64,000 nt of DNA from a virus (Duplodnaviria; Caudoviricetes). Of the stretch, positions 8,101 to 47,047 are shown piece after piece. The position numbers and the translations under genes are program-made. The stretch lies in the IMG/VR virus record IMGVR_UViG_3300037420_001376, positions 8,329 through 72,328 of that record; one strand, written 5' to 3'. The notes under the pieces were generated by a model, which worked only from the letters and a program-made list of their open reading frames with translations, was not told the DNA's origin and did not search any database. Within the stretch, counting starts at the first letter, position 1; the number at the start of each line of letters is the position of its first letter.

Positions 8101-11100
8101 GTATGCTGATATGCCTCTTCCGGTGTTGCATCCCCAGTGGCAACTAATGCCGCGCTGTCCTGAACTAATTGACGAATAGTTTTTGAAAGCTCTCGACCGT
8201 TTTTGGAGTTCTGGTCGATTCTGCCATTTTGTAAAACAAGAGCGGCACCCGTTTTATCTAAAGCATCAACGAGATTTGCTTGATAACCAATAGCTTGCTC
8301 TACGTCATCTTGATACTTAGCTAATGCGTCATCATTAGGGAGTTTGCCAAGATTTTCAAGAGACTTAATAAAGTTTTGTGCTCGCTGATCAGCATCAATC
8401 GTTTGATCACTAAAGTCACGAATGGCATCGGTCAACTTCTTGACTTGGCTGCCACCATTTTCAAATTGATCACGCATTTGCTTAAGCGTATCAATTAATG
8501 CTTGCGGCGCTTTCTTGTCAGCCAGCATTTTCAGGAATTCTGCGAACTGATCCGCGCTTCCCTGAATTGCATCTGCCGCAGACTTAGCGTCAACGTCTAG
8601 TTTTGCCAAAGCCTCTTCAACTGGACTGACAGCCTTACTAACTTCATCCGTTGATGGAGGCTTAATGTTTGGCGTAATGCTTGGCAGTGTATTTGGATCA
8701 GCCTTTTTATTAGTGGTGTCAATACCATGCTGATTAAGTGTATTAATTAAATTCTGAAGAGAGGTCGGATTTAACTTAACGTCTGGCTTAAGAACTAAAT
8801 TGGTGCCATGCAAATCAAGTACATCTTGCCCTATAGCGGCTTCAATCTGCCTCTCTAAATCAGCCTGAGACTGCGGTGTGGCATCTTTAAATGTAATCGG
8901 AACAGCAACGCCACCATTAGCAATTGCCTGCAAACTAATAAGCAGTGTTCCAAGTGCTTGTGTTAGTTGATCTTTTCCTTCAATCTGAACTGCAATCTTA
9001 ATCGGCTCAGGAACAATACCTTCATAATTCTTGATAAATTCCCGAAGTTGATCGACAGAAATTCCAAGTTGTTTGGCAACATCCGGTAACTGTGCATTCA
9101 GTTGAGCAAACATTTCATCAACGTTGCCACCACTAGAAGCAAACGTTAAGAAATTCTGGGACAACTCCCCAAAGACGCCAATGAGATTACGGCCAGTTTG
9201 TGTGTTCTCATTGAACTTATTATTTACATTATCCCAAACGTTATTCAGGCCATCGCCGGAAGAGATAGCTTCAGAAACTTTTTGAGACAGATTCTGGATA
9301 GCATCTGCATAATTTGATGCAGCTTCCAAAGCGTCTGTCTTCAGGAACCCTAGCGCCTGTAAAACTAACTTAAGGCCATCAAGTTTAGTTGTTGCGTCTC
9401 CTGCAGCATTTTTGATTTTATCAATGCCTGCAGCTAATTGAATACCACCGGTGCCTAATTCTTGGGCAGATTGTGCAGCTTGGTTAAATTGATCACGTAA
9501 TGCATCTACCTGTGCTTTTGCCTGATCAGCACCAGCACCGGCATCATAAAGTCTTTTAACTAAATCATTATACGCATCTGCAGAACCAGATATCGCTACG
9601 CGCAATTCATTCTGAGTTACGCCAGCGGATTTAAAATTATTTAGTGCTTGTTGTGCGTCAGCAGCAGATTTTTGAATAGCGTTTAATTGATTCGACTCAC
9701 CACCGAGAAAACCGAATAATTCTTGTGACCAACTTTTACCAGCATCATTGGTAAAGTTTGTTCTGATAACATCGCCAATATGAGATATAATTCCTGGCAT
9801 TGCCTCAGATTTAGCTTGTAAATCCGAGAACATTGTGTCAAGACTCTGAGTGATCGCGTCCATAACCGTATGTCCGGCCACGCCACGATCATCGATAAAC
9901 GCATTTCTAATATCTGTTCCCGCCTGCTTTATATGAGCAGCGGAATCATTTATTGCGTCTAAACCTTTTTTAACCGTCTTATTTCGTTCGTCCCACGCTA
10001 ACCAACCAGCGCCAACTACAAGTAAAACCCCAGCAATAGGACCAGCTAATCCAGCAAGAGTGCTGATAACCCCCGACAAAGACGTACGGACGTTTGAAAT
10101 AGATTGAGATGCTTTTTTGCCAACAGGCCCAAAATTATCAAGAACACTAAGAACTTTAAGTAATGCAGTATCTAAACCACTAATAATTTTACCAGCGTTT
10201 CTCAAGGTTAAGAAAACGCCAACAAAAGTCTTGATGGTATTAATGCCAACCATGGCAATATGATCGAATATCTTCCATGCAGCAATAATGCCAAGCAGCC
10301 TACCAAGAACTTCATCAAGTCCTAGCGCGTGCTTTAGTTCAGCCATTGCGCTAATAAACTGCATTAAACTTTGAAGCGCTGGCAAAAACTCTGCAGAAAA
10401 TGCATCGGCAGTTGACTTGATAACCGTGTAGACATTTTTCATCATGTCTACAAAATCATGGAAGGTGTCTTTGAAATCTTGTAAACGGTTGCCACCGGGA
10501 TCAGACATTTCCCGAACAGCGTTACCGATATCTCGTAAGGTTCCAGCCGCCGCTGATTTTTGAACGGACTGATTGAACCGTTCCATTGAATCGGCAAATC
10601 GAGCGAGGAAATCCCCACCCGTGTTGGTTCTAAATACTGTGAGTAGACTCCACACAGCCTTTGTTAAGCTGGTGAATCCAGAAATTAAATCCTTAACTCC
10701 CTGGCGGGCATCCTGCATCCACTTAAGTAAATTACCATTTTGCCGATTAACATTAGCCCATTGTGCAAATTGATTAATAAGATTTGGTAACCCGCCACTC
10801 AAATCCCTAATAAAGCTACTACCGACAGCAGCGATATCTCGCAGTCCATCTAAAGCAGGGCGAATAGCCTTTGCTAAAGTTTCAATAGTTCCAGCGGTAT
10901 TAGTGAAAAGCGTGGATACATCTTTTTGCGTTTGGCCTGCCTGCGCAAAACCAACCAACGCATCTTTGGCGTCACGTAAGGCGGCAACAACTTTTGTCGC
11001 GCCACCTTCCCAAATTGGGAAATACGTTTGGCCCAGTGCTTTAATTTGATCTGCTGCACCGGCAAAAGCTGTGCCTCGCAATGATTCCTGAAGTTCTTTC

Positions 11101-31323: not shown

Positions 31324-34194
31324 TCACTTTGTACCATTGTTCATACCACTGTCTGCGCTGCTTTTATCAAATGGAATTACATTTGATCCCGTAAACTTCA
31401 CATTTAAAAAGTAATTATCTACGATGCCATTTACTTTCTTTTGTTTCTGTGGAAAATCTAAAGCCTTTAGTCTCCGAGTTAATAATGGCTGCGATGCAGT
31501 ATCTTTTCTTTGAATATTATTAAGATCACACCACTCAAGATATTTTATTTTTACATCTTTTGGCCTAAGATAAGATTCAACGCCAACCTTAGTTAAGCAC
31601 TGAGAAGCAAAGGTTGAAATGTGATCTAAGCCGTTAACAAAATCATCTGTTTCTGCTTCAATTAATTTAGATGTAGGCAGTTCTCCTAAGTTGCGATACT
31701 GCTTGTATCCGTCAATGAGCCATGAAAGTACGGCAGTTGCACATACGTCTTTAACGACTCTGGAAAAAGATTTATCAATGTTTCTCGGTGTAACATCGAA
31801 CGGTATGACAAGCAGGCGATTGCGCAATGCTTTGTCTGCACCAGAAATTTGTGGGACGGCATTCGTCGCCAATATGGGAACGAATTGCGGCACACCCTCA
31901 ATTGTAGTATTTGACCCTTTGAGTTCAGCCTGGATCTTATCTGAACCACCAGTGAGCCTTTTGACTTGAGAAGCAGAAAGCTGATCTTTTTCGTCAAATT
32001 CAGAACATACAATGATTCGTTTGGTAAGTGAGTTTGCCAAAACTGGGTTAAGTTTGTGATTCTGAAATATAGTTTGGTTAACACTTTGCGCATAATCTCC
32101 TAACGCAGACTCAAGTGCAGAAATCATTGTTGACTTACCAGTGTTTGGATCACCCTTTAAAACGACCATAATTTTCTCAGGATTGCCTCCAATAATGGTA
32201 TGTCCTAATACCACCTGAACAATACGTTGTAGCTCAGGATCAGGCAGAAAAGTATCTAAATACTCCTGCCACTTTTGTGCCGCAAAATCTGTTGGCTGCT
32301 CCCATTTAATGTTAGTATTTAGTGTAATAAAATCATCTAATTGAGCTTTTCGTAATCTAACTTCGTCACGGTCAAGCTCTACTACTCCATTGGCAACACC
32401 TAAAAGCATTTCATTTTTATCTAAATCGTTGACAGATATAGACACCCCAGTAATCGAGGTTGCAGCCTTCAAAGCATTTTCTGCTTGTCGATTATTTCCG
32501 CTCAGTTCCGCCCATTTTTGCCATTTTTGATACTTCGCTCTCGCTAAAATTAAATCTGCCGGTGCATTTTGGCCAGAAGTAGGTTGTCCGCCACTGATGG
32601 CAGCTTGTAATTTATTATCAAAATCAGCTTTTAAAGCATCAACATAAGCTTTTTGGCGCTCTTTTACTTTGTGCCACATTCGCCTAACTTGTTGATTTCC
32701 TAATTCATCGCGTTGCCAATGAGATTCAACATCGCTGCTACCATCATGCCAAACAATCCAGCCATAACCTTCTGCGAATCTAACAGAAGGGCCGTGAGCA
32801 AGAGAACTAAACATATCCACAAAATGTGCAGCATTACCATCGTCGTTAGTTTCATATTCTTCTATCGCCTTTAAAGCGCCTTTAGGAACATCATCTAATT
32901 CATCGGGTGGGTCTAACGATCCATCATTATCACTATCCAATGATGATAAAGAATTCCGTTGGTCAGAAGCATCCCCAGCCAAAACGCCAGAATTATGTGA
33001 TACGTCGGACCCACTAGAAACCACAGAAAGTTTCGGACTTTTCGATCCGCAGATGCCCACTTTAATGCAAAGCGGGTCCACAGCTTTTGCGCCGATTTTT
33101 CTTCTTTCGTCGGATTTCCCTTTAATCTGCCGTAGAGCCTGTATTCTGCTTCTAAAAATCTCTCCGTGAACTTCTGATAATCCACGCTTCCCGCGAGCCA
33201 CGGTGATTTCTTCAAACTTTTGCTCCAACTCATTAATCGCCGCGTTCCAGCCCAAATGTCCCTCGAAGGCCAAATGGAGCAAGTTCCAGTGCGCGTTAGT
33301 GAGCTTGTCATGAGAAGTTGCCTCATCTTCAATTAACCTCAAATGTTTATCTAGTTTGGATCGCATTAATTCACACGGCAGAGTGAAATCTCCACACGCC
33401 GTTGATTCGTCACACTCAAAAAGCTGACCGTTTTCATCTAAATCTGGATGACGGCAATCGTCTTTATGAAAAGTATCGGTAGCCCAGTCGTAAATTTCTT
33501 GAACCGCTGAATCAACATCAATAATTTCATCTTCAACGGCTAAAGTTCCACCAGAAGTTAAAAAATCTATCCATTTTTCAGGAAGTAGGGGCATCTTTCG
33601 CGCATCTGGAAGCACCCCGTTCCACAAGGTTCGCTCGGATTTTCCAGGCGACACGGAAGGCGCAAACCACCAGTAGATTCCTCCCTCGGGGTGAATACTG
33701 GGCCAGACGACGGCAAATCGGTGTCCTTTTCGGATGACTTCGATATCTTTGTCAACCTTCCCACGAAACGCCAATCCGCGCGGTACGCGGAAATACCGAA
33801 TACCACTTTTTCCATCGGTTCTTGCCGAGGAAATCCATGTCGGTGGTAAAGTCCCAAGCGTAGTCTCCAATTTTTGAAGCTGACTATAACCCTCTTTTTT
33901 CTTTCCACCTTTAGGGTAATCATCTACATCTATTCCAATCAATTCATGGTGTTCATCAACACCCGCCAGTCGAACACAAATATTATGCTTTTTACCGTCA
34001 TTGCACCATTCCTCGAAGTCTTCTAGACCAGGATATGGTGCGCGTTGACCGGTGAAATCGACCGGTGGGGGGAATTTATCTTTATAAGGAATCGGCAATG
34101 GGCCTCTAAACCCAGCCTTTAAATACTTCTCATAAGTATCTTTATAAGGATTTAAAACTCTGGGAACATTATTATTTCCATCGTTTTGAACCAA
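31324..34194 (-). CDS. DNA primase/polymerase-helicase (PrimPol + D5-like SF3 ATPase), 956 aa
   Basis: IGIDVD and GIRYF PrimPol motifs; Walker A GDPNTGKST; CSEFD and ILATN; GGAGG RBS before TTG. Confidence 0.92.
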   Translation of the reverse strand: MVQNDGNNNVPRVLNPYKDTYEKYLKAGFRGPLPIPYKDKFPPPVDFTGQRAPYPGLEDFEEWCNDGKKHNICVRLAGVDEHHELIGIDVDDYPKGGKKKEGYSQLQKLETTLGTLPPTWISSARTDGKSGIRYFRVPRGLAFRGKVDKDIEVIRKGHRFAVVWPSIHPEGGIYWWFAPSVSPGKSERTLWNGVLPDARKMPLLPEKWIDFLTSGGTLAVEDEIIDVDSAVQEIYDWATDTFHKDDCRHPDLDENGQLFECDESTACGDFTLPCELMRSKLDKHLRLIEDEATSHDKLTNAHWNLLHLAFEGHLGWNAAINELEQKFEEITVARGKRGLSEVHGEIFRSRIQALRQIKGKSDERRKIGAKAVDPLCIKVGICGSKSPKLSVVSSGSDVSHNSGVLAGDASDQRNSLSSLDSDNDGSLDPPDELDDVPKGALKAIEEYETNDDGNAAHFVDMFSSLAHGPSVRFAEGYGWIVWHDGSSDVESHWQRDELGNQQVRRMWHKVKERQKAYVDALKADFDNKLQAAISGGQPTSGQNAPADLILARAKYQKWQKWAELSGNNRQAENALKAATSITGVSISVNDLDKNEMLLGVANGVVELDRDEVRLRKAQLDDFITLNTNIKWEQPTDFAAQKWQEYLDTFLPDPELQRIVQVVLGHTIIGGNPEKIMVVLKGDPNTGKSTMISALESALGDYAQSVNQTIFQNHKLNPVLANSLTKRIIVCSEFDEKDQLSASQVKRLTGGSDKIQAELKGSNTTIEGVPQFVPILATNAVPQISGADKALRNRLLVIPFDVTPRNIDKSFSRVVKDVCATAVLSWLIDGYKQYRNLGELPTSKLIEAETDDFVNGLDHISTFASQCLTKVGVESYLRPKDVKIKYLEWCDLNNIQRKDTASQPLLTRRLKALDFPQKQKKVNGIVDNYFLNVKFTGSNVIPFDKSSADSGMNNGTK

Positions 34195-34517
34195 CTTCTG
34201 ACCTCCGCGTTACCTAACTCAGCGGCTCCAATGCCAACTGACAGGAAACGTCCAACTTAACATATGCCCTGCTCAGGGCCACTATTTACTAGATCTATGG
34301 GGTGTCGGGCAAAGCCACCACTACAGGTTGTGCTTGCACGAGCAAACAAACCCCCTTCCCTCTTCAAACATTTATTTGCTTACTGATCGAAATAATTCTA
34401 AAAAATCCATAATCATATTTGTTGCCACTTCTTGCCAAGATTCTCTCATTCGTTTTCCAGTACATATTCAACCCCTATGGGGTGTTTAGACTATCTACCC
34501 CAATATGTTGTGGTTGG

Positions 34518-34703
34518 TCATTTTTCCATCTGACTCTTTATAAAACCTTGGATAACTTTTTCAGAATCCACAGGCCAATAAATAAAATTACTTTTAGTAA
34601 AGTTGCAGATACTTAGTTCTCTATCGCTTAAATACCTTAAGAAGTCATTCAAGAAAATTTCTGACTTATCGCAACACATTCCCCTAATACTGTCGCCGCT
34701 CAT
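34518..34703 (-). CDS. Hypothetical protein, 61 aa
   Basis: ATGA coupling to upstream gene. Confidence 0.5.
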   Translation of the reverse strand: MSGDSIRGMCCDKSEIFLNDFLRYLSDRELSICNFTKSNFIYWPVDSEKVIQGFIKSQMEK

Positions 34704-35098
34704 GACAACCTTTCTCCGTTCACCCGATCCACAGTTTCTTTATACTCATTCAGCATAGAAGAGTTTTTCATAATAGCTAAAGCATCACAGATGCCACGAA
34801 TATAATTGTCTATAAAAATAGGTAAATCACTAGGAGCTAATTTCTTTTCAACCTCATAATCTAAAGCCGTCAGAAAACGTCTCTGGTGATAGTCAGCAAG
34901 TTCCTCTAACCGCTTAATAATACTTTTTCCTGGCGGTACTGAGTGCCCTTCCATTTGTGCCGAAGATTTGCGAACTCTTACTGATTCTCGTTCTTTGACT
35001 CCGGTAATAAGATAATCGCTTTCCACAGGATCAACTTCAACTACCTGTCCAAAAGAAATTCCATGGTCTTCCAGAGCATCTTTGATAAGTTTTTCCAC
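34700..35098 (-). CDS. Hypothetical protein (about 132 aa; GTG start at 35098)
   Basis: GGAGG RBS precedes GTG 35098; track start 35203 lacks an RBS. Confidence 0.65.
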   Translation of the reverse strand: MEKLIKDALEDHGISFGQVVEVDPVESDYLITGVKERESVRVRKSSAQMEGHSVPPGKSIIKRLEELADYHQRRFLTALDYEVEKKLAPSDLPIFIDNYIRGICDALAIMKNSSMLNEYKETVDRVNGERLS

Positions 35099-35179
35099 GA
35101 TGTTACCTCCAAAATTTCTTGAATGATTTTTGCGAACGTCGAGCCTGTAGGCTAGCCCACACTTAATCAGTTTAACCCC

Positions 35180-35209
35180 TTGCGCTAGCACATACTCATG
35201 CACTATCGT
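35180..35209 (+). promoter_or_regulatory. Candidate sigmaA-type promoter for the ncRNA
   Basis: TTGCGC (35180-35185), 18-nt spacer, TATCGT (35204-35209); predicted +1 near G35217, the first base of the first hairpin. Confidence 0.45.
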
Positions 35210-35216
35210 AGGTATC

Positions 35217-36173
35217 GCTGTTGATTGAACGGGTCACAGCAAACCCGGTGAGAACACGAAAGACGGCAGAGGCATCCCCGAAGCACGCGCTCACCGGGTC
35301 TGAACTTTCATAACTCCATCGAAAAGCTTTGGGGCATGGCCCTATAACTACGGGCAACCGTAGGAAAGGCTGGCATGACACCCGGCCACTACACCCTCTC
35401 GCCTTCGGGCGAAAGGCTCTGTAGCAAACCATGCACGGCAGTCCTTAAAAATTCAACTGAGGTTGGATTTGGATATCGACCGGAACTGTGTGAAACACCA
35501 ACTAGCGTAAAAAACTAGAGTTTCAGCCATTGCGAGAATGCGGCAAGTTGGCAGCAGGGAAAAGGAAGATAATCTTGGAGTGCGGGGAACGTTTTTAAAA
35601 CTGCGAGTAGGCATACAAGTGGGCGTTTCAGGAAATTCTGGGCTAGGCAGGCATGTCTAGGAAGTACAGAAAAGTACAGAGAAAGTAGACCGCAAATCGA
35701 AATCTCCGTTGGCGTGAAGCATTCCGTAGCTTAAAAGGGTACGGAACTTCATGGGGAAGCACGTCAACAGTCCGGAGTTATCCGTTAAATATCACACGCT
35801 GTGTTAGCTCAATTTGGCGAGAGCATTCTGTTAGGGACAGAAATGTTGGTGGTTCGATTCCTCCACACAAAAAGCAAAAGTCTTTCCCCTTCGTTAACGA
35901 AAGCGTCATCTAAGCCGTAGCGCGTAAGCGAACTACGGAATCTCTGAGCCGCAAGCAATATGGGATTTTCATAAACAAGTAGTTGTAGGCAGTGGGCGGC
36001 CACCTATTGTTGAAACGAAAGTTGTGGAGTAGTTAACGAGAGAAAACGAGTGGTTTACGTTCCCCACTAAAAACTACTTCGGTAGGTTTGAAAAGGAAAA
36101 CAAACCGGGCGTGGTGATTACAAGTGAGAGCTTGTGGAAAAGTTGCTAAACCATAAGGCAACGAAAGATCACT
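35217..36173 (+). ncRNA. Candidate large structured ncRNA (GOLLD/ROOL-like class) with embedded tRNA-like domain
   Basis: About 1.1 kb without a credible ORF; many hairpins and junctions; cUUCGg x2, GCAA, GTAA and GAGA tetraloops and G-U pairs valid only on +; ends at a terminator. Confidence 0.72.
35798..35872 (+). tRNA. Degenerate tRNA-Pro-like element, anticodon AGG
   Basis: D-arm GCTC/GAGC, anticodon stem TTCTG/CAGAA with loop TTAGGGA, T-loop TTCGATT; only 5 of 7 acceptor pairs, no CCA. Confidence 0.7.
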
Positions 36174-36206
36174 AAAAGAGGCGGGTATTCTCACCGCCTC
36201 TTTTTT
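36174..36206. terminator. Bidirectional intrinsic terminator
   Basis: AAAAGAGGCGG / CCGCCTCTTTTTT; T-runs on both strands, between the ncRNA (+) and gene 36232 (-). Confidence 0.85.
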
Positions 36207-36231
36207 AGTGCCTAAAATCCGATAAAACCGA

Positions 36232-36477
36232 TTATGTCGGGTTGGCGTCGTACTCCACCGCAGCGGCGGCAGTGACCTTGCCGACGTGCTCTACCAGCAG
36301 CGGAATGCCGTCAATGCTCGACGGAACCTCACCCGCTGGCGGATTCAGCGTGTTGACCTTGAGCACCCAATCGTTCTCGCCCTTGCCATCCAAGGTCAGC
36401 CCAAAGCCGGTGGGCTTTGCTTCTATCAGGTTGTACCAACGTCTCTTGAGGTCACGGACCTCCGACAAGCTAGCCAT
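36232..36477 (-). CDS. Hypothetical protein, 81 aa, about 60% GC
   Basis: AGAGGA RBS; hand count 139/230 G+C. Confidence 0.7.
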   Translation of the reverse strand: MASLSEVRDLKRRWYNLIEAKPTGFGLTLDGKGENDWVLKVNTLNPPAGEVPSSIDGIPLLVEHVGKVTAAAAVEYDANPT

Positions 36478-36526
36478 ATGTTTCCTCTCTGCTGATAATT
36501 TCGCCTTACGTCAACTATCCTTAGTT

Positions 36527-36697
36527 TTATTTCCTGCTATTAAGTGTCGGCATTTTTCTGTTATAAGCGTCGGCATCTCGCATAATGTTTGCCAATTCTA
36601 CAACGTCACCGGCTGTCAGTGATTGAGCGTCTTTAAGATCAAATTCAAGAGCATATCTTTCAAGAAGATCCCTGGCCTGTTGTTCGTAACTTTTCAT
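36527..36697 (-). CDS. Hypothetical protein, 56 aa (not in track)
   Basis: Hand translation MKSYEQQARDLLERYALEF...; TGATG coupling. Confidence 0.6.
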   Translation of the reverse strand: MKSYEQQARDLLERYALEFDLKDAQSLTAGDVVELANIMRDADAYNRKMPTLNSRK

Positions 36698-37377
36698 CAC
36701 CACCTCCTTGGTTGACCACTGGGATAAAAACGTTGCTTAGAGGCTTGGCCACGAAAAATCTCTGGCGCTTGTGGAGACGTAACCGCCTGAAGTTTTTGAA
36801 TATCCTCTTCGGTTAATTTCTTACGAGGTGCAGAAAATTCTACTGATTCTTCAAAAGGACCAACAATACTTTCAACATGTTCTGCCAAAGTCATATCTTT
36901 TTCTTGAATAACCTTGGCGTTAGCACTGGCATCACGCATTTTAAATTCAACATCTTCTGCGTTCCAGCCAATACAATCTGGACACCACGGCGCGTTATGC
37001 TCGTCATAAACAATATCTTTTGGATCAGTTACTCTTCTTTTACACGGTGGTTGATGATATTTGCAGCCTGATGGATGATGCCACACTGCCGGGGCATTAT
37101 TTTCTTTAAAACGCATAATTCCGGCACCATCGACATAACAGCCTGGAACGACTTGCATTCCTTTTGGCACGTTAACCCATGCACCCACCGGCACGTCCAC
37201 CGATTCATAGACGGGTGCGCCTCCGTAATGGGAGCCGCTGTCGGTACGCCCTACCTCATAAATGCCTTGGTCTTGCCTCATCCCTACCGGCACCGGCGTT
37301 AGATGGGGCTTTTTCTCGCTAGAATCCCCGGGTGGCGTCTCAACGAATTTTTTCTTCTTACCTTTTCCCCGGCTCAC
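36697..37377 (-). CDS. Hypothetical protein, 226 aa, Cys/His cluster
   Basis: Long co-directional ORF; HHPSGCKYHQPPC...WCPDC. Confidence 0.7.
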   Translation of the reverse strand: MSRGKGKKKKFVETPPGDSSEKKPHLTPVPVGMRQDQGIYEVGRTDSGSHYGGAPVYESVDVPVGAWVNVPKGMQVVPGCYVDGAGIMRFKENNAPAVWHHPSGCKYHQPPCKRRVTDPKDIVYDEHNAPWCPDCIGWNAEDVEFKMRDASANAKVIQEKDMTLAEHVESIVGPFEESVEFSAPRKKLTEEDIQKLQAVTSPQAPEIFRGQASKQRFYPSGQPRRW

Positions 37378-37479
37378 ATTGACTCCAAAATTTCCAATTG
37401 ATCCTGGGTAATAATGCCTGACATTTTAACCTCTACCATTCCAGCCCATTCGCCCTCTTCAATAATTTTAGACTCTATA

Positions 37480-38508
37480 TTAAGCATTACACTCTACCTT
37501 TTCCCTTTCTTTTTCTACTTGCTTTTTAGCCCACTCAGTTATTTCGCGTAGCGCTGCAATATGTCCAATGAGAGAATGTTTGGAAAACGTGAGAGTTTCA
37601 AACTGATCATCGCTCATGGTTTTACTGTCGCGCTCCAAAATAGCTTCTTCGCGCTGCAATTCCGCATAAAGTTTATTGGCTGTCTCCTGACAATAATCCA
37701 CAAGCTCTTGGCGGGTAATCCACCCATCATATTTACGCGGAGAACTAATAGCACTAGTCATTCTTCAGGAAACCCCACATACTCAACTTGCATTGTCATT
37801 ACTTGATCTTCCCAATTCAGCCCGCCTTCACCACTGAATCTAAATCGGCACTCAACATCACCGATTCTTAGATATATAAATTCATAACGCAATGCTCCTG
37901 ATTTCTTAATAACAGTCAGATTACCGTTATCATCGTATTCTGAATCAGGGTAAAGATTTTTAACTAAAGCCTTATAAAAACGGCTGCCGTCGTCAGCAGC
38001 CAATTCCAGTGTCATTTTAGGCCGAGCATGTCGACGTTCATAAGTATCAATGACGCGCTTTTGGAATTCTTCGTAGGTTTCCCCTTGCCTACGGTTATCT
38101 ATATCATCATTTCCACTGAAGCCATGTGTGCCCACAGTTACCACATTCTCTCATTAAGTGCTTTGAACGTCTCGGGACTCTCTCTTGCATATATGCAAAG
38201 CTAAATTTTTGACACTTAGGGCATTCTTGATAAGCCTGGAACTGATTTAGCTCCCGCTCTCTTCTTAGTATCCAGTCATCATAAAGTTCTATTGGGATAT
38301 TTTGAGTAAGGGTAATCTCTTGGGCTAACTCTTTTACTGAATCTGTAGCATCAGGTAAAACCGTTACTGCGTATCTATTTCTAATTGCGGTTTTATCTTT
38401 CTTATGTGCTTTTCTAGCGTCCGATTTGTAACTGTATATTGCAGTCACTGAACAAGTAAAAGCGCATATCCATATAATGAGCATAACCCGGCCTTGAGAA
38501 TCGCCCAT
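37480..38508 (-). CDS. Three small hypothetical genes (37480-37761, 37758-38144, 38107-38508); the last has a TM segment and a Zn ribbon
   Basis: Overlapping or abutting ORFs; CPKC...CGNCGHTW in 38107-38508. Confidence 0.6.
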
Positions 38509-46717: not shown

Positions 46718-46793
<76 letters not shown>

Positions 46794-46962
46794 TCGCACC
46801 GAAAAGTGAAGGGATGCCCCAAAGATTATGAGTCTTTGTTGCCACTTTTCGGATTGACCACATTTTTCCAGACCCTCATCCGGTGGTTATGTGGAACCAG
46901 GAATTCGGGGTAACCCGTGTCAGTTGCGTATCTGACCTCATTCCGTCTACCCTGCCTTTCCG

Positions 46963-47047
46963 TGTCTCCGGTGGGACTTGAACCCACAAAGTCTTTCGAC
47001 CGACAGATTTTAAGTCTGTTGCGTTTGCCAAATTTCGCCACGGAGAC
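46963..47047 (-). tRNA. tRNA-Leu(UAA)
   Basis: GTCTCCG/CGGAGAC acceptor, loop CTTAAAA, long variable arm, GGTTCAAGTCC; CCA not encoded. Confidence 0.92.

Follow-up and report, generated by a model that had tools for sequence, protein, structure and literature searches.

In a 64,000-nt stretch of viral DNA (hereafter the window; IMG/VR record IMGVR_UViG_3300037420_001376, positions 8,329 to 72,328), two minus-strand genes bound a gap at 35099-36231, and the question raised by this locus is what occupies it. The original prediction had placed a densely folded plus-strand RNA there, either of the GOLLD/ROOL type or of a new class. A protein-coding reading was rejected: the longest ORF in the gap has at most 78 aa on either strand, in agreement with the claim that no credible ORF exists, and relatives of the locus carry many indels and retain the base pairs, which is how homologues had been proposed to discriminate between pairing and a reading frame. 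All 13 helices listed in the original prediction were found where it had put them; Watson-Crick complementarity is perfect in seven, and the other six depend on G-U pairs, which form on the plus strand only. The claimed helix density is also real, as 35217-36206 contains eight perfect inverted repeats of at least 9 nt compared with 1.55 +/- 1.6 in 200 shuffles, none of which attained eight (0/200). Strand polarity is seen in the minimum free energies, which are -321.8 kcal/mol (z -4.35) for the plus strand and -284.4 kcal/mol (z -2.38) for the minus strand, with 20 dinucleotide shuffles per strand. One pairing had to be given up: the long-range 9-mers GGGGAACGT/ACGTTCCCC (35584/36057) match perfectly, yet their 3′ half lies inside a 42-nt insertion that is missing in the closest relative (locus L200), so that the pairing is not kept there, and about 1.5 such perfect 9-mers are expected by chance.

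The occupant is, with high confidence, a GOLLD RNA of roughly 990 nt (35217-36206, plus strand) carried by a soil phage that has a complete genome of 72 kb and is a relative of Mycobacterium phage Patience. The GOLLD family is said to have its source in Weinberg et al. 2009. Its Rfam model (RF02032), which spans the conserved 3′ half only, matches 35707-36197 on the plus strand with 191.7 bits (E 1.8e-52) against a gathering score, the curated cut-off, of 150 bits, covering all 416/416 positions untruncated. The models of ROOL, OLE, HEARO and raiA, which had been named for the same check, give no match in the RNA at E <= 1, and the other Rfam matches at E <= 1 are tRNA (41.5 bits at 35798-35872) and CsrC, the latter at chance level. 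Because the GOLLD model is matched above its gathering score and none of those four models is matched, the RNA was assigned to GOLLD; it is a further example of a catalogued family, not a new kind of RNA. The GOLLD part of the prediction is thereby borne out at full model length and the "new class" alternative is left unsupported, while the remark on tRNAs contained in some GOLLD RNAs finds its counterpart in the tRNA-model match, which falls in the GOLLD linker.

The hallmarks of the GOLLD 3′ domain are all present, namely AAAAAGCAAAAGUCUU, the 8-bp pseudoknot, GAGUAG, GUGGAAAAG and the terminal loop GUAUUCUCA (Table 1), and the locus shares with the family the three-way junction, the terminal GUAnUCUCA loop, a structured and variable 5′ domain, a variable linker capable of holding a tRNA and here containing a tRNA-like element, a phage location and a size of about 0.8-1 kb. 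The first hairpin (35707-35768) is 83-93% identical to those of GOLLDs from Mycobacterium phages and prophages. Base pairing is conserved beyond sequence: the pseudoknot strands are UCGUUAAC/GUUAACGA here and UUACUGAC/GUUGGUAA in L200, so the sequences differ and complementarity is kept with the help of G-U pairs. The present RNA departs from the family by the 42-nt insertion in one 3′-domain hairpin, which replaces four model positions in the Rfam alignment and contains CUAC-UUCG-GUAG (36074-36085).

Table 1. Features of the RNA gene and its immediate flanks, in window coordinates.
Feature	Position	Strand	Evidence or remark
Left neighbour gene	GTG start 35096-35098	minus	GGAGGT Shine-Dalgarno 35105-35110
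Candidate promoter, TTGCGC (35180), 18 nt, TATCGT (35204)	35180..35209	+	Sequence reading
5′ leader	35217..35328	+	10-bp hairpin ACCCGGTGAG/CTCACCGGGT (35243-35299) confirmed
GOLLD 5′ domain	35329..35706	+	14-sequence alignment A1
5′-domain junction, GCATGG/CCATGC	35334-35339 / 35429-35434	+	
GNRA hairpin, CTACGG-GCAA-CCGTAG	35348-35363	+	GAAAGG linker in 5′ domain
Hairpin, GGCUGG/CCGGCC	35368-35387	+	
UUCG-capped arm	35389-35424	+	Lineage-specific
Hairpin	35449-35470	+	
Hairpin, CTAGGCA/TGTCTAG	35643-35660	+	
First 3′-domain hairpin, loop CUUAAAAGG	35707..35768	+	Rfam model positions 1-62
Variable linker (J13/15 in published nomenclature) with tRNA-like element	35769..35868	+	Unaligned insert, Rfam alignment
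tRNA-like cloverleaf, anticodon loop UU-AGG-GA	35798-35872	+	Rfam tRNA 41.5 bits; ARAGORN tRNA-Pro(AGG)
Conserved block AAAAAGCAAAAGUCUU	35869-35884	+	Rfam alignment
Pseudoknot 5′ strand UCGUUAAC	35891-35898	+	Rfam pseudoknot brackets; GAAAG also within 35869..35903
Stem CCGUAGCGC-GUAA-GCG..CUACGG	35915-35938	+	Rfam alignment; central stems 35915..36039
Further central stems: GCAA-capped hairpin; stem-loop with palindrome GGCC in loop	GGCC 35998-36001	+	
GAGUAG	36027	+	Rfam alignment
Pseudoknot 3′ strand GUUAACGA	36032-36039	+	Rfam alignment
Conserved hairpin GGUUU.../...AAACC	36052..36106	+	Bears 42-nt lineage-specific insertion
3′ three-way junction GGUGAUU/GAUCACU	36113..36173	+	Rfam model positions about 330-395; encloses ACAAGU-GAGA-GCUUGU (GAGA tetraloop 36126-36129), GUGGAAAAG (at 36134) and GUUGC...GCAAC
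Terminal GOLLD hairpin, 8-bp stem, loop GUAUUCUCA	36177-36201	+	Rfam model positions 400-416; U6 36201-36206
Right neighbour gene	Stop at 36232	minus	

The 5′ half lies outside any Rfam model and matches most other GOLLD candidates weakly, and both facts would suit an RNA of a new large class, or of the ROOL type, with a superficial likeness to GOLLD. Relatives were used to test this half. Homology to the closest one, L200, extends over about 35220-36209 at 58% identity, and since this homology begins at about 35220, the 5′ end of the RNA was placed near 35217. GOLLD loci were further gathered from viral contigs, metagenomes and genomes by conserved 3′ patterns plus the first-hairpin motif, and a subgroup of about 20 loci has the common first hairpin GGCGUGnAGCAUU..CUnAAAAGG; it comprises Bongo and other cluster M phages, Mycobacterium/Mycolicibacterium prophages, one Streptomyces contig, and contigs from soil and other metagenomes. 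Among the 16 subgroup loci scanned, 13 reach the GOLLD gathering score (150-226 bits). Locus L275 has a score of 136.6 bits, and L304, L296 and L287 have no GOLLD match or end before the 3′ domain. Elsewhere in the subgroup the leader (35217-35328) is unconserved, and its place is often taken by a tRNA; within the family, this leader of roughly 110 nt is common to the present RNA and one relative only.

An alignment of the present RNA with 13 relatives through the 5′ domain (A1, 14 sequences) has as common blocks UUUGGGGCAUGGCC-AUAA, the GNRA hairpin, GAAAGG, another hairpin and CCAUGCAA. RNAalifold predicted 43 pairs on A1, and compensatory changes occur in 27/43 of them, as expected of homologues that conserve pairing. 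Aligned cells are paired in 92.8% of cases compared with 35-43% after displacement of the partners by 1-3 columns, and 0/500 shuffles matched the observed values; the structure is testable in part only, because the MAFFT alignment is poor in the middle of the domain. Some searches were less informative: nhmmer with the 5′ half as a single sequence retrieved L200 as the sole relative among 118 viral-contig GOLLD candidates, the 14-mer AAAGCAAAAGTCTT is unspecific (1/116 matches is a GOLLD), and the 5′ motif GGGCAACCNNNGGAAAGG has 52 matches with GOLLD in 2/52. A profile of the 5′ core matches seven other GOLLD candidates more weakly at the corresponding position (nhmmer E 2e-5 to 4e-3, 7/118), and the 5′ domain is therefore a variant form of the one general to GOLLD, not a foreign domain. 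ROOL RNAs, which occur in phages and prophages and form 6- to 8-mer cages, are likewise large and ornate, often near tRNAs, and have a disordered internal linker, but their sequence and secondary structure are unrelated and their model has no match here. As the whole GOLLD model is matched with a score over the curated threshold, no other family appears at E <= 1 except tRNA and the chance-level CsrC, and variability of the 5′ domain belongs to the traits that define GOLLD (PMC12286853), a new class or a ROOL-type RNA has a practically negligible probability.

What such an RNA may build can be read from solved members of the family. Cryo-EM has revealed that GOLLD RNAs form closed cages without protein, in which env-38 GOLLD is a 14-mer and S. 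agalactiae GOLLD a 12-mer, with caps made of the 5′ domains and rings of the 3′ domains (PMC12286853, PMC12990946). The variable linker is disordered and directed into the cage interior (PMC12286853, Kretsch et al. 2025; PMC12990946). By analogy, the present RNA most likely self-assembles into an RNA-only cage of 12 to 14 subunits, a reading extrapolated from two GOLLD members of differing subunit number (12, 14). Its variable 5′ domain (about 35329-35706) would form the caps and its conserved 3′ domain (35707-36206) the rings, while the variable linker joining the two halves of the 3′ domain would hold its tRNA-shaped fold in the interior. The self-complementary loop GGCC (35998-36001), which is seen in 4/4 aligned relatives, would fit the published symmetric kissing contact, and the GAGA tetraloop (36126-36129) seems consistent with published contact types. 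Compared with the solved GOLLDs (700 and 833 nt), the present RNA is longer, at about 990 nt, its oligomeric state being taken by analogy, and assembly could be altered or prevented by the 42-nt insertion or by the 5′ domain, whose subtype is different. Of the giant RNAs in bacteria and phages, GOLLD is one of few with a known atomic structure, in its case a cage of RNA alone, but no known function.

The linker raises a separate question, that is, whether its cloverleaf is a working tRNA. One answer would be that the unit chiefly carries a tRNA-Pro(AGG), freed by RNase P and RNase Z to read CCU, a codon that is frequent in this AT-rich phage and would be poorly read by a high-GC actinobacterial host. 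The cloverleaf is complete in having D, anticodon and T arms, and its 41.5 bits compare with an Rfam tRNA cut-off of 29 bits. The GC3 of the phage is 0.36 and CCU makes up 29% of its proline codons, so a CCU-reading tRNA would be useful in a high-GC host, and the two free-standing tRNAs, Lys-UUU and Leu-UAA, fit the preferred codons AAA (61%) and UUA (30%). GOLLD-linker tRNAs are also documented (PMC12286853, PMC12990946). However, the D arm is normal and the T loop is UUCGAUU, but only 5/7 acceptor pairs can form because 1-72 is G.A and 2-71 is C.A, the T stem contains a U.U mismatch and CCA is not encoded; judged as a canonical elongator tRNA, the element reaches the score threshold and lacks a 7-pair acceptor and an intact T stem. 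Its 3′ end shares 4 nt with the conserved GOLLD block, and release of the tRNA would therefore sever the GOLLD chain. An anticodon with A34 would in addition be a rarity; to our knowledge, such anticodons in bacteria are essentially limited to tRNA-Arg(ACG).

The subgroup as a whole speaks the same way. Linker cloverleafs occur in ten of its members, with a different anticodon in each, and the present one has the lowest score of the ten (the others reach 46.5-68.6 bits). A full 7-bp acceptor is found in 1/10 linker cloverleafs but in 40/50 other tRNAs of the same loci, that is, the acceptor is incomplete in 9/10 versus 10/50 (Fisher p 5e-5, the ten sequences being related and hence not independent samples; the best 3′ offset was taken for each count, since ARAGORN 3′ ends vary). 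In a broader set, 114/132 tRNAs outside GOLLDs have a fully paired 7-bp acceptor. In an alignment of the ten linker cloverleafs (A2), pairing reaches 100% in the D stem, 98% in the anticodon stem, where 5/5 pairs covary, and 84% in the T stem, while acceptor pair 1 is unpaired in 8/10 and pair 2 in 6/10. Bacterial tRNA-Leu and tRNA-Ser bear a long variable arm, and the 'Leu-UAG' and 'Ser-UGA' linker members are without one. Other subgroup members have a mere tRNA remnant in the linker or none, and among the 118 more diverse viral GOLLD candidates a linker tRNA is found in L200 only. A working tRNA-Pro(AGG) as the chief cargo is thus improbable. The linker 'tRNA' of this actinophage/soil subgroup may instead be a conserved, non-decoding, tRNA-shaped module inside the cage, perhaps serving a tRNA-binding factor as decoy or as docking site, a reading that we put forward tentatively, as possible rather than probable. 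It has been proposed that embedded tRNAs are stored or shielded inside the GOLLD cage (PMC12286853; 2026 review PMC12990946); the subgroup-wide acceptor-stem defect bears on this idea of storing or hiding a tRNA and makes it testable.

The phage that carries the RNA, whose source was probably a soil metagenome sample, is represented by a record of 72,328 bp (CheckV completeness 100%) with a GC content of about 44%. Its major capsid protein is 85.6% identical to that of Mycobacterium phage Patience, the terminase about 62% and the primase-polymerase about 57%. The family gains a member whose phage genome is complete and has relatives in a culturable, well-studied group (Patience, cluster U). 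The minus strand encodes every credible gene as well as the two free-standing tRNAs, and the ORF layout together with these two tRNAs upholds the claim that the RNA is the only plus-strand unit in the window. The distance from the RNA to these tRNAs, which are on the opposite strand, is 10.5 kb. In contrast to many GOLLDs, the RNA is not adjoined by a tRNA array, and it further departs from the family in opposing all genes of its phage. No GOLLD match was obtained in the Patience genome, and its syntenic stretch, from the gp101-like gene to the primase, is densely coding without a gap; therefore, the RNA gene looks like an acquired insert in a variable small-gene region. Since the GOLLD of L200 is co-directional with its neighbours and that of Bongo lies in a co-directional array of tRNAs and tmRNA, the antisense placement is particular to the present phage.

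GOLLD in Mycobacterium tRNA arrays and phages is already in print, according to the accounts of Morgado et al. 2020 (RNA Biol 17:1001) given in PMC12286853 and PMC9569102, and linker tRNAs are known as well. The Mycobacterium type, represented by cluster M phages such as Bongo and by tRNA-array islands, resembles the present RNA in the first hairpin, in the 5′ core running from UUUGGGGCAUGGCC-AUAA through the GNRA hairpin and GAAAGG to CCAUGCAA, and in having a tRNA or its remnant in the linker. Those copies reside in large tRNA arrays, often beside tmRNA and an HNH endonuclease and co-directional with their neighbours, whereas the present one is isolated and antisense in a Patience-like phage with 44% GC. 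Some mild novelty lies in the occurrence of a GOLLD in a low-GC phage of the Patience type, in its isolated position antisense to the genes, in the insertion of 42 nt and in the acceptor defect of linker cloverleafs throughout the subgroup. Close relatives belong to mycobacteriophages of cluster M that can be cultured, which makes it feasible to delete the RNA there and to study its expression.

An isolated plus-strand element that is missing from the closest cultured relative, with no gap in the syntenic region, might also be a decaying, non-functional GOLLD relic, acquired horizontally in the wrong orientation and now drifting. The degenerate linker tRNA, the 42-nt insertion and a score of 191.7 bits, in the lower half of the subgroup range (150-226), could be taken as signs of such decay. 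However, all 416 model positions are matched without truncation, helices are intact even where the sequence departs from relatives, the terminal hairpin and U-tract are intact, the plus-strand fold has a z of -4.35, and near-identical fragments occur in three RNA libraries. A relic is therefore very unlikely, and an intact GOLLD gene remains the preferred reading.

Such a gene would be a self-contained transcription unit opposite to every protein gene, with a weak candidate promoter just upstream, and would end at the conserved terminal GOLLD hairpin and U-tract. The promoter-like hexamers of the original prediction are indeed present on the plus strand, TTGCGC and TATCGT, ending about 7 nt ahead of the first conserved base, but they are weak, and a consensus promoter scan reported none upstream of the RNA; 35180-35209 may thus be counted as a weak candidate. 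The predicted U-tract terminator fared better, as the hairpin at 36177-36201 is followed by T6 at 36201-36206, and it is likely to be the intrinsic terminator of the RNA, which the terminator scan missed because the loop has 9 nt. An A-run precedes this hairpin, so minus-strand transcription could be stopped there too, and the hairpin could halt transcription from both directions.

A hint of expression comes from contigs of three rhizosphere metatranscriptomes (three studies), which match the RNA with 0-1 mismatches at 35353-35536, 35353-35515, 35955-36105 and 36002-36152; the assembled contigs do not distinguish the strands, and some DNA may be present in RNA libraries. For a GOLLD, a discrete RNA that increases during phage lysis would be expected. 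A DNA run marked as the probable source yielded no matching contigs, which can be a false negative and carries no weight. The flanks at 33000-35352 and 36153-38500 are uncovered by RNA-library contigs, which is no sign that they are silent. Several other metatranscriptome contigs match the first hairpin only (35711-35765) and then diverge, and these represent related GOLLDs.

The linker 'tRNAs' of related GOLLDs, which lie in the variable stretch between the two parts of the conserved 3′ domain, share D and T arms, and the anticodon is different in each. A full 7-bp acceptor stem is missing in nine of ten linker cloverleafs (those of the nine listed relatives plus the window's own) compared with 10 of 50 neighbouring tRNAs, and the 'Leu' and 'Ser' linker cloverleafs are devoid of a long variable arm. 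In the linker of locus L298 (about 1084-1146), which follows the first GOLLD hairpin, T-arm-like GGTGGTTCAATTCCATC precedes D-arm-like TTGCTCATTGGCAGCAA; the element is possibly what remains of a tRNA-like fold, in permuted or rearranged form.

Features of the window and of loci (L numbers) carrying related GOLLDs or candidates
Feature	Location	Strand	Remarks
Terminal GOLLD hairpin with flanks	window 36173-36209		AAAAG upstream, UUUUUU downstream
42-nt insertion	window 36059-36100		UUCG-capped stem, within conserved 3′-domain hairpin
tRNA-Lys(UUU), tRNA-Leu(UAA)	window 46718-46793, 46962-47047	-	free-standing, n=2
Linker 'tRNA'	L293:1799-1871
Linker 'tRNA'	L295:1588-1661
Linker 'tRNA'	L296:1452-1526
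Linker 'tRNA'	L299:552-624
Linker 'tRNA'	L300:1712-1784
Linker 'tRNA'	L302:608-680
Linker 'tRNA'	L303:590-663
Linker 'tRNA'	L306:1549-1624
Linker 'tRNA'	L307:1813-1884
tmRNA or tmRNA-like genes	L292:328-730, L306:2505-2945, L300:3239-3321, L302:2381-2465
Type II hammerhead ribozyme match	L295:432-500	-	43.6 bits, cut-off 37

The insertion in the window's GOLLD is missing in its closest relative. ACGUUCCCC (36057-36065), at the 5′ end of the insertion, is a perfect complement of 35584-35592 in the 5′ domain, but the long-range pairing of the original prediction was discarded, such matches occurring at chance frequency and this one lacking conservation. Downstream, the RNA gene and the minus-strand gene ending at 36232 are convergent with the terminal hairpin between them, and this hairpin could, from its sequence, act as a two-way terminator for both.

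The window's phage (44% GC; window 1-64000, whole phage) is a soil relative of Mycobacterium phage Patience, with identities of 85.6% for the capsid, ~62% for the terminase and ~57% for the primase; Patience has no GOLLD gene. Patience belongs to cluster U, and its own GC is unusually low relative to its host. The two free-standing tRNAs of the window's phage decode exactly the A-ending codons that it favours (AAA, 61% of Lys; UUA, 30% of Leu), a pairing that would fit a higher-GC host.

tmRNA or tmRNA-like genes lie 1-2 kb or less from GOLLD in the Mycobacterium cluster M phage Bongo, one Mycolicibacterium prophage and two metagenome contigs. The 64-kb window has no tmRNA. On contig IMGVR_UViG_3300009506_000049, a distance of ~1 kb separates the hammerhead match from the GOLLD.
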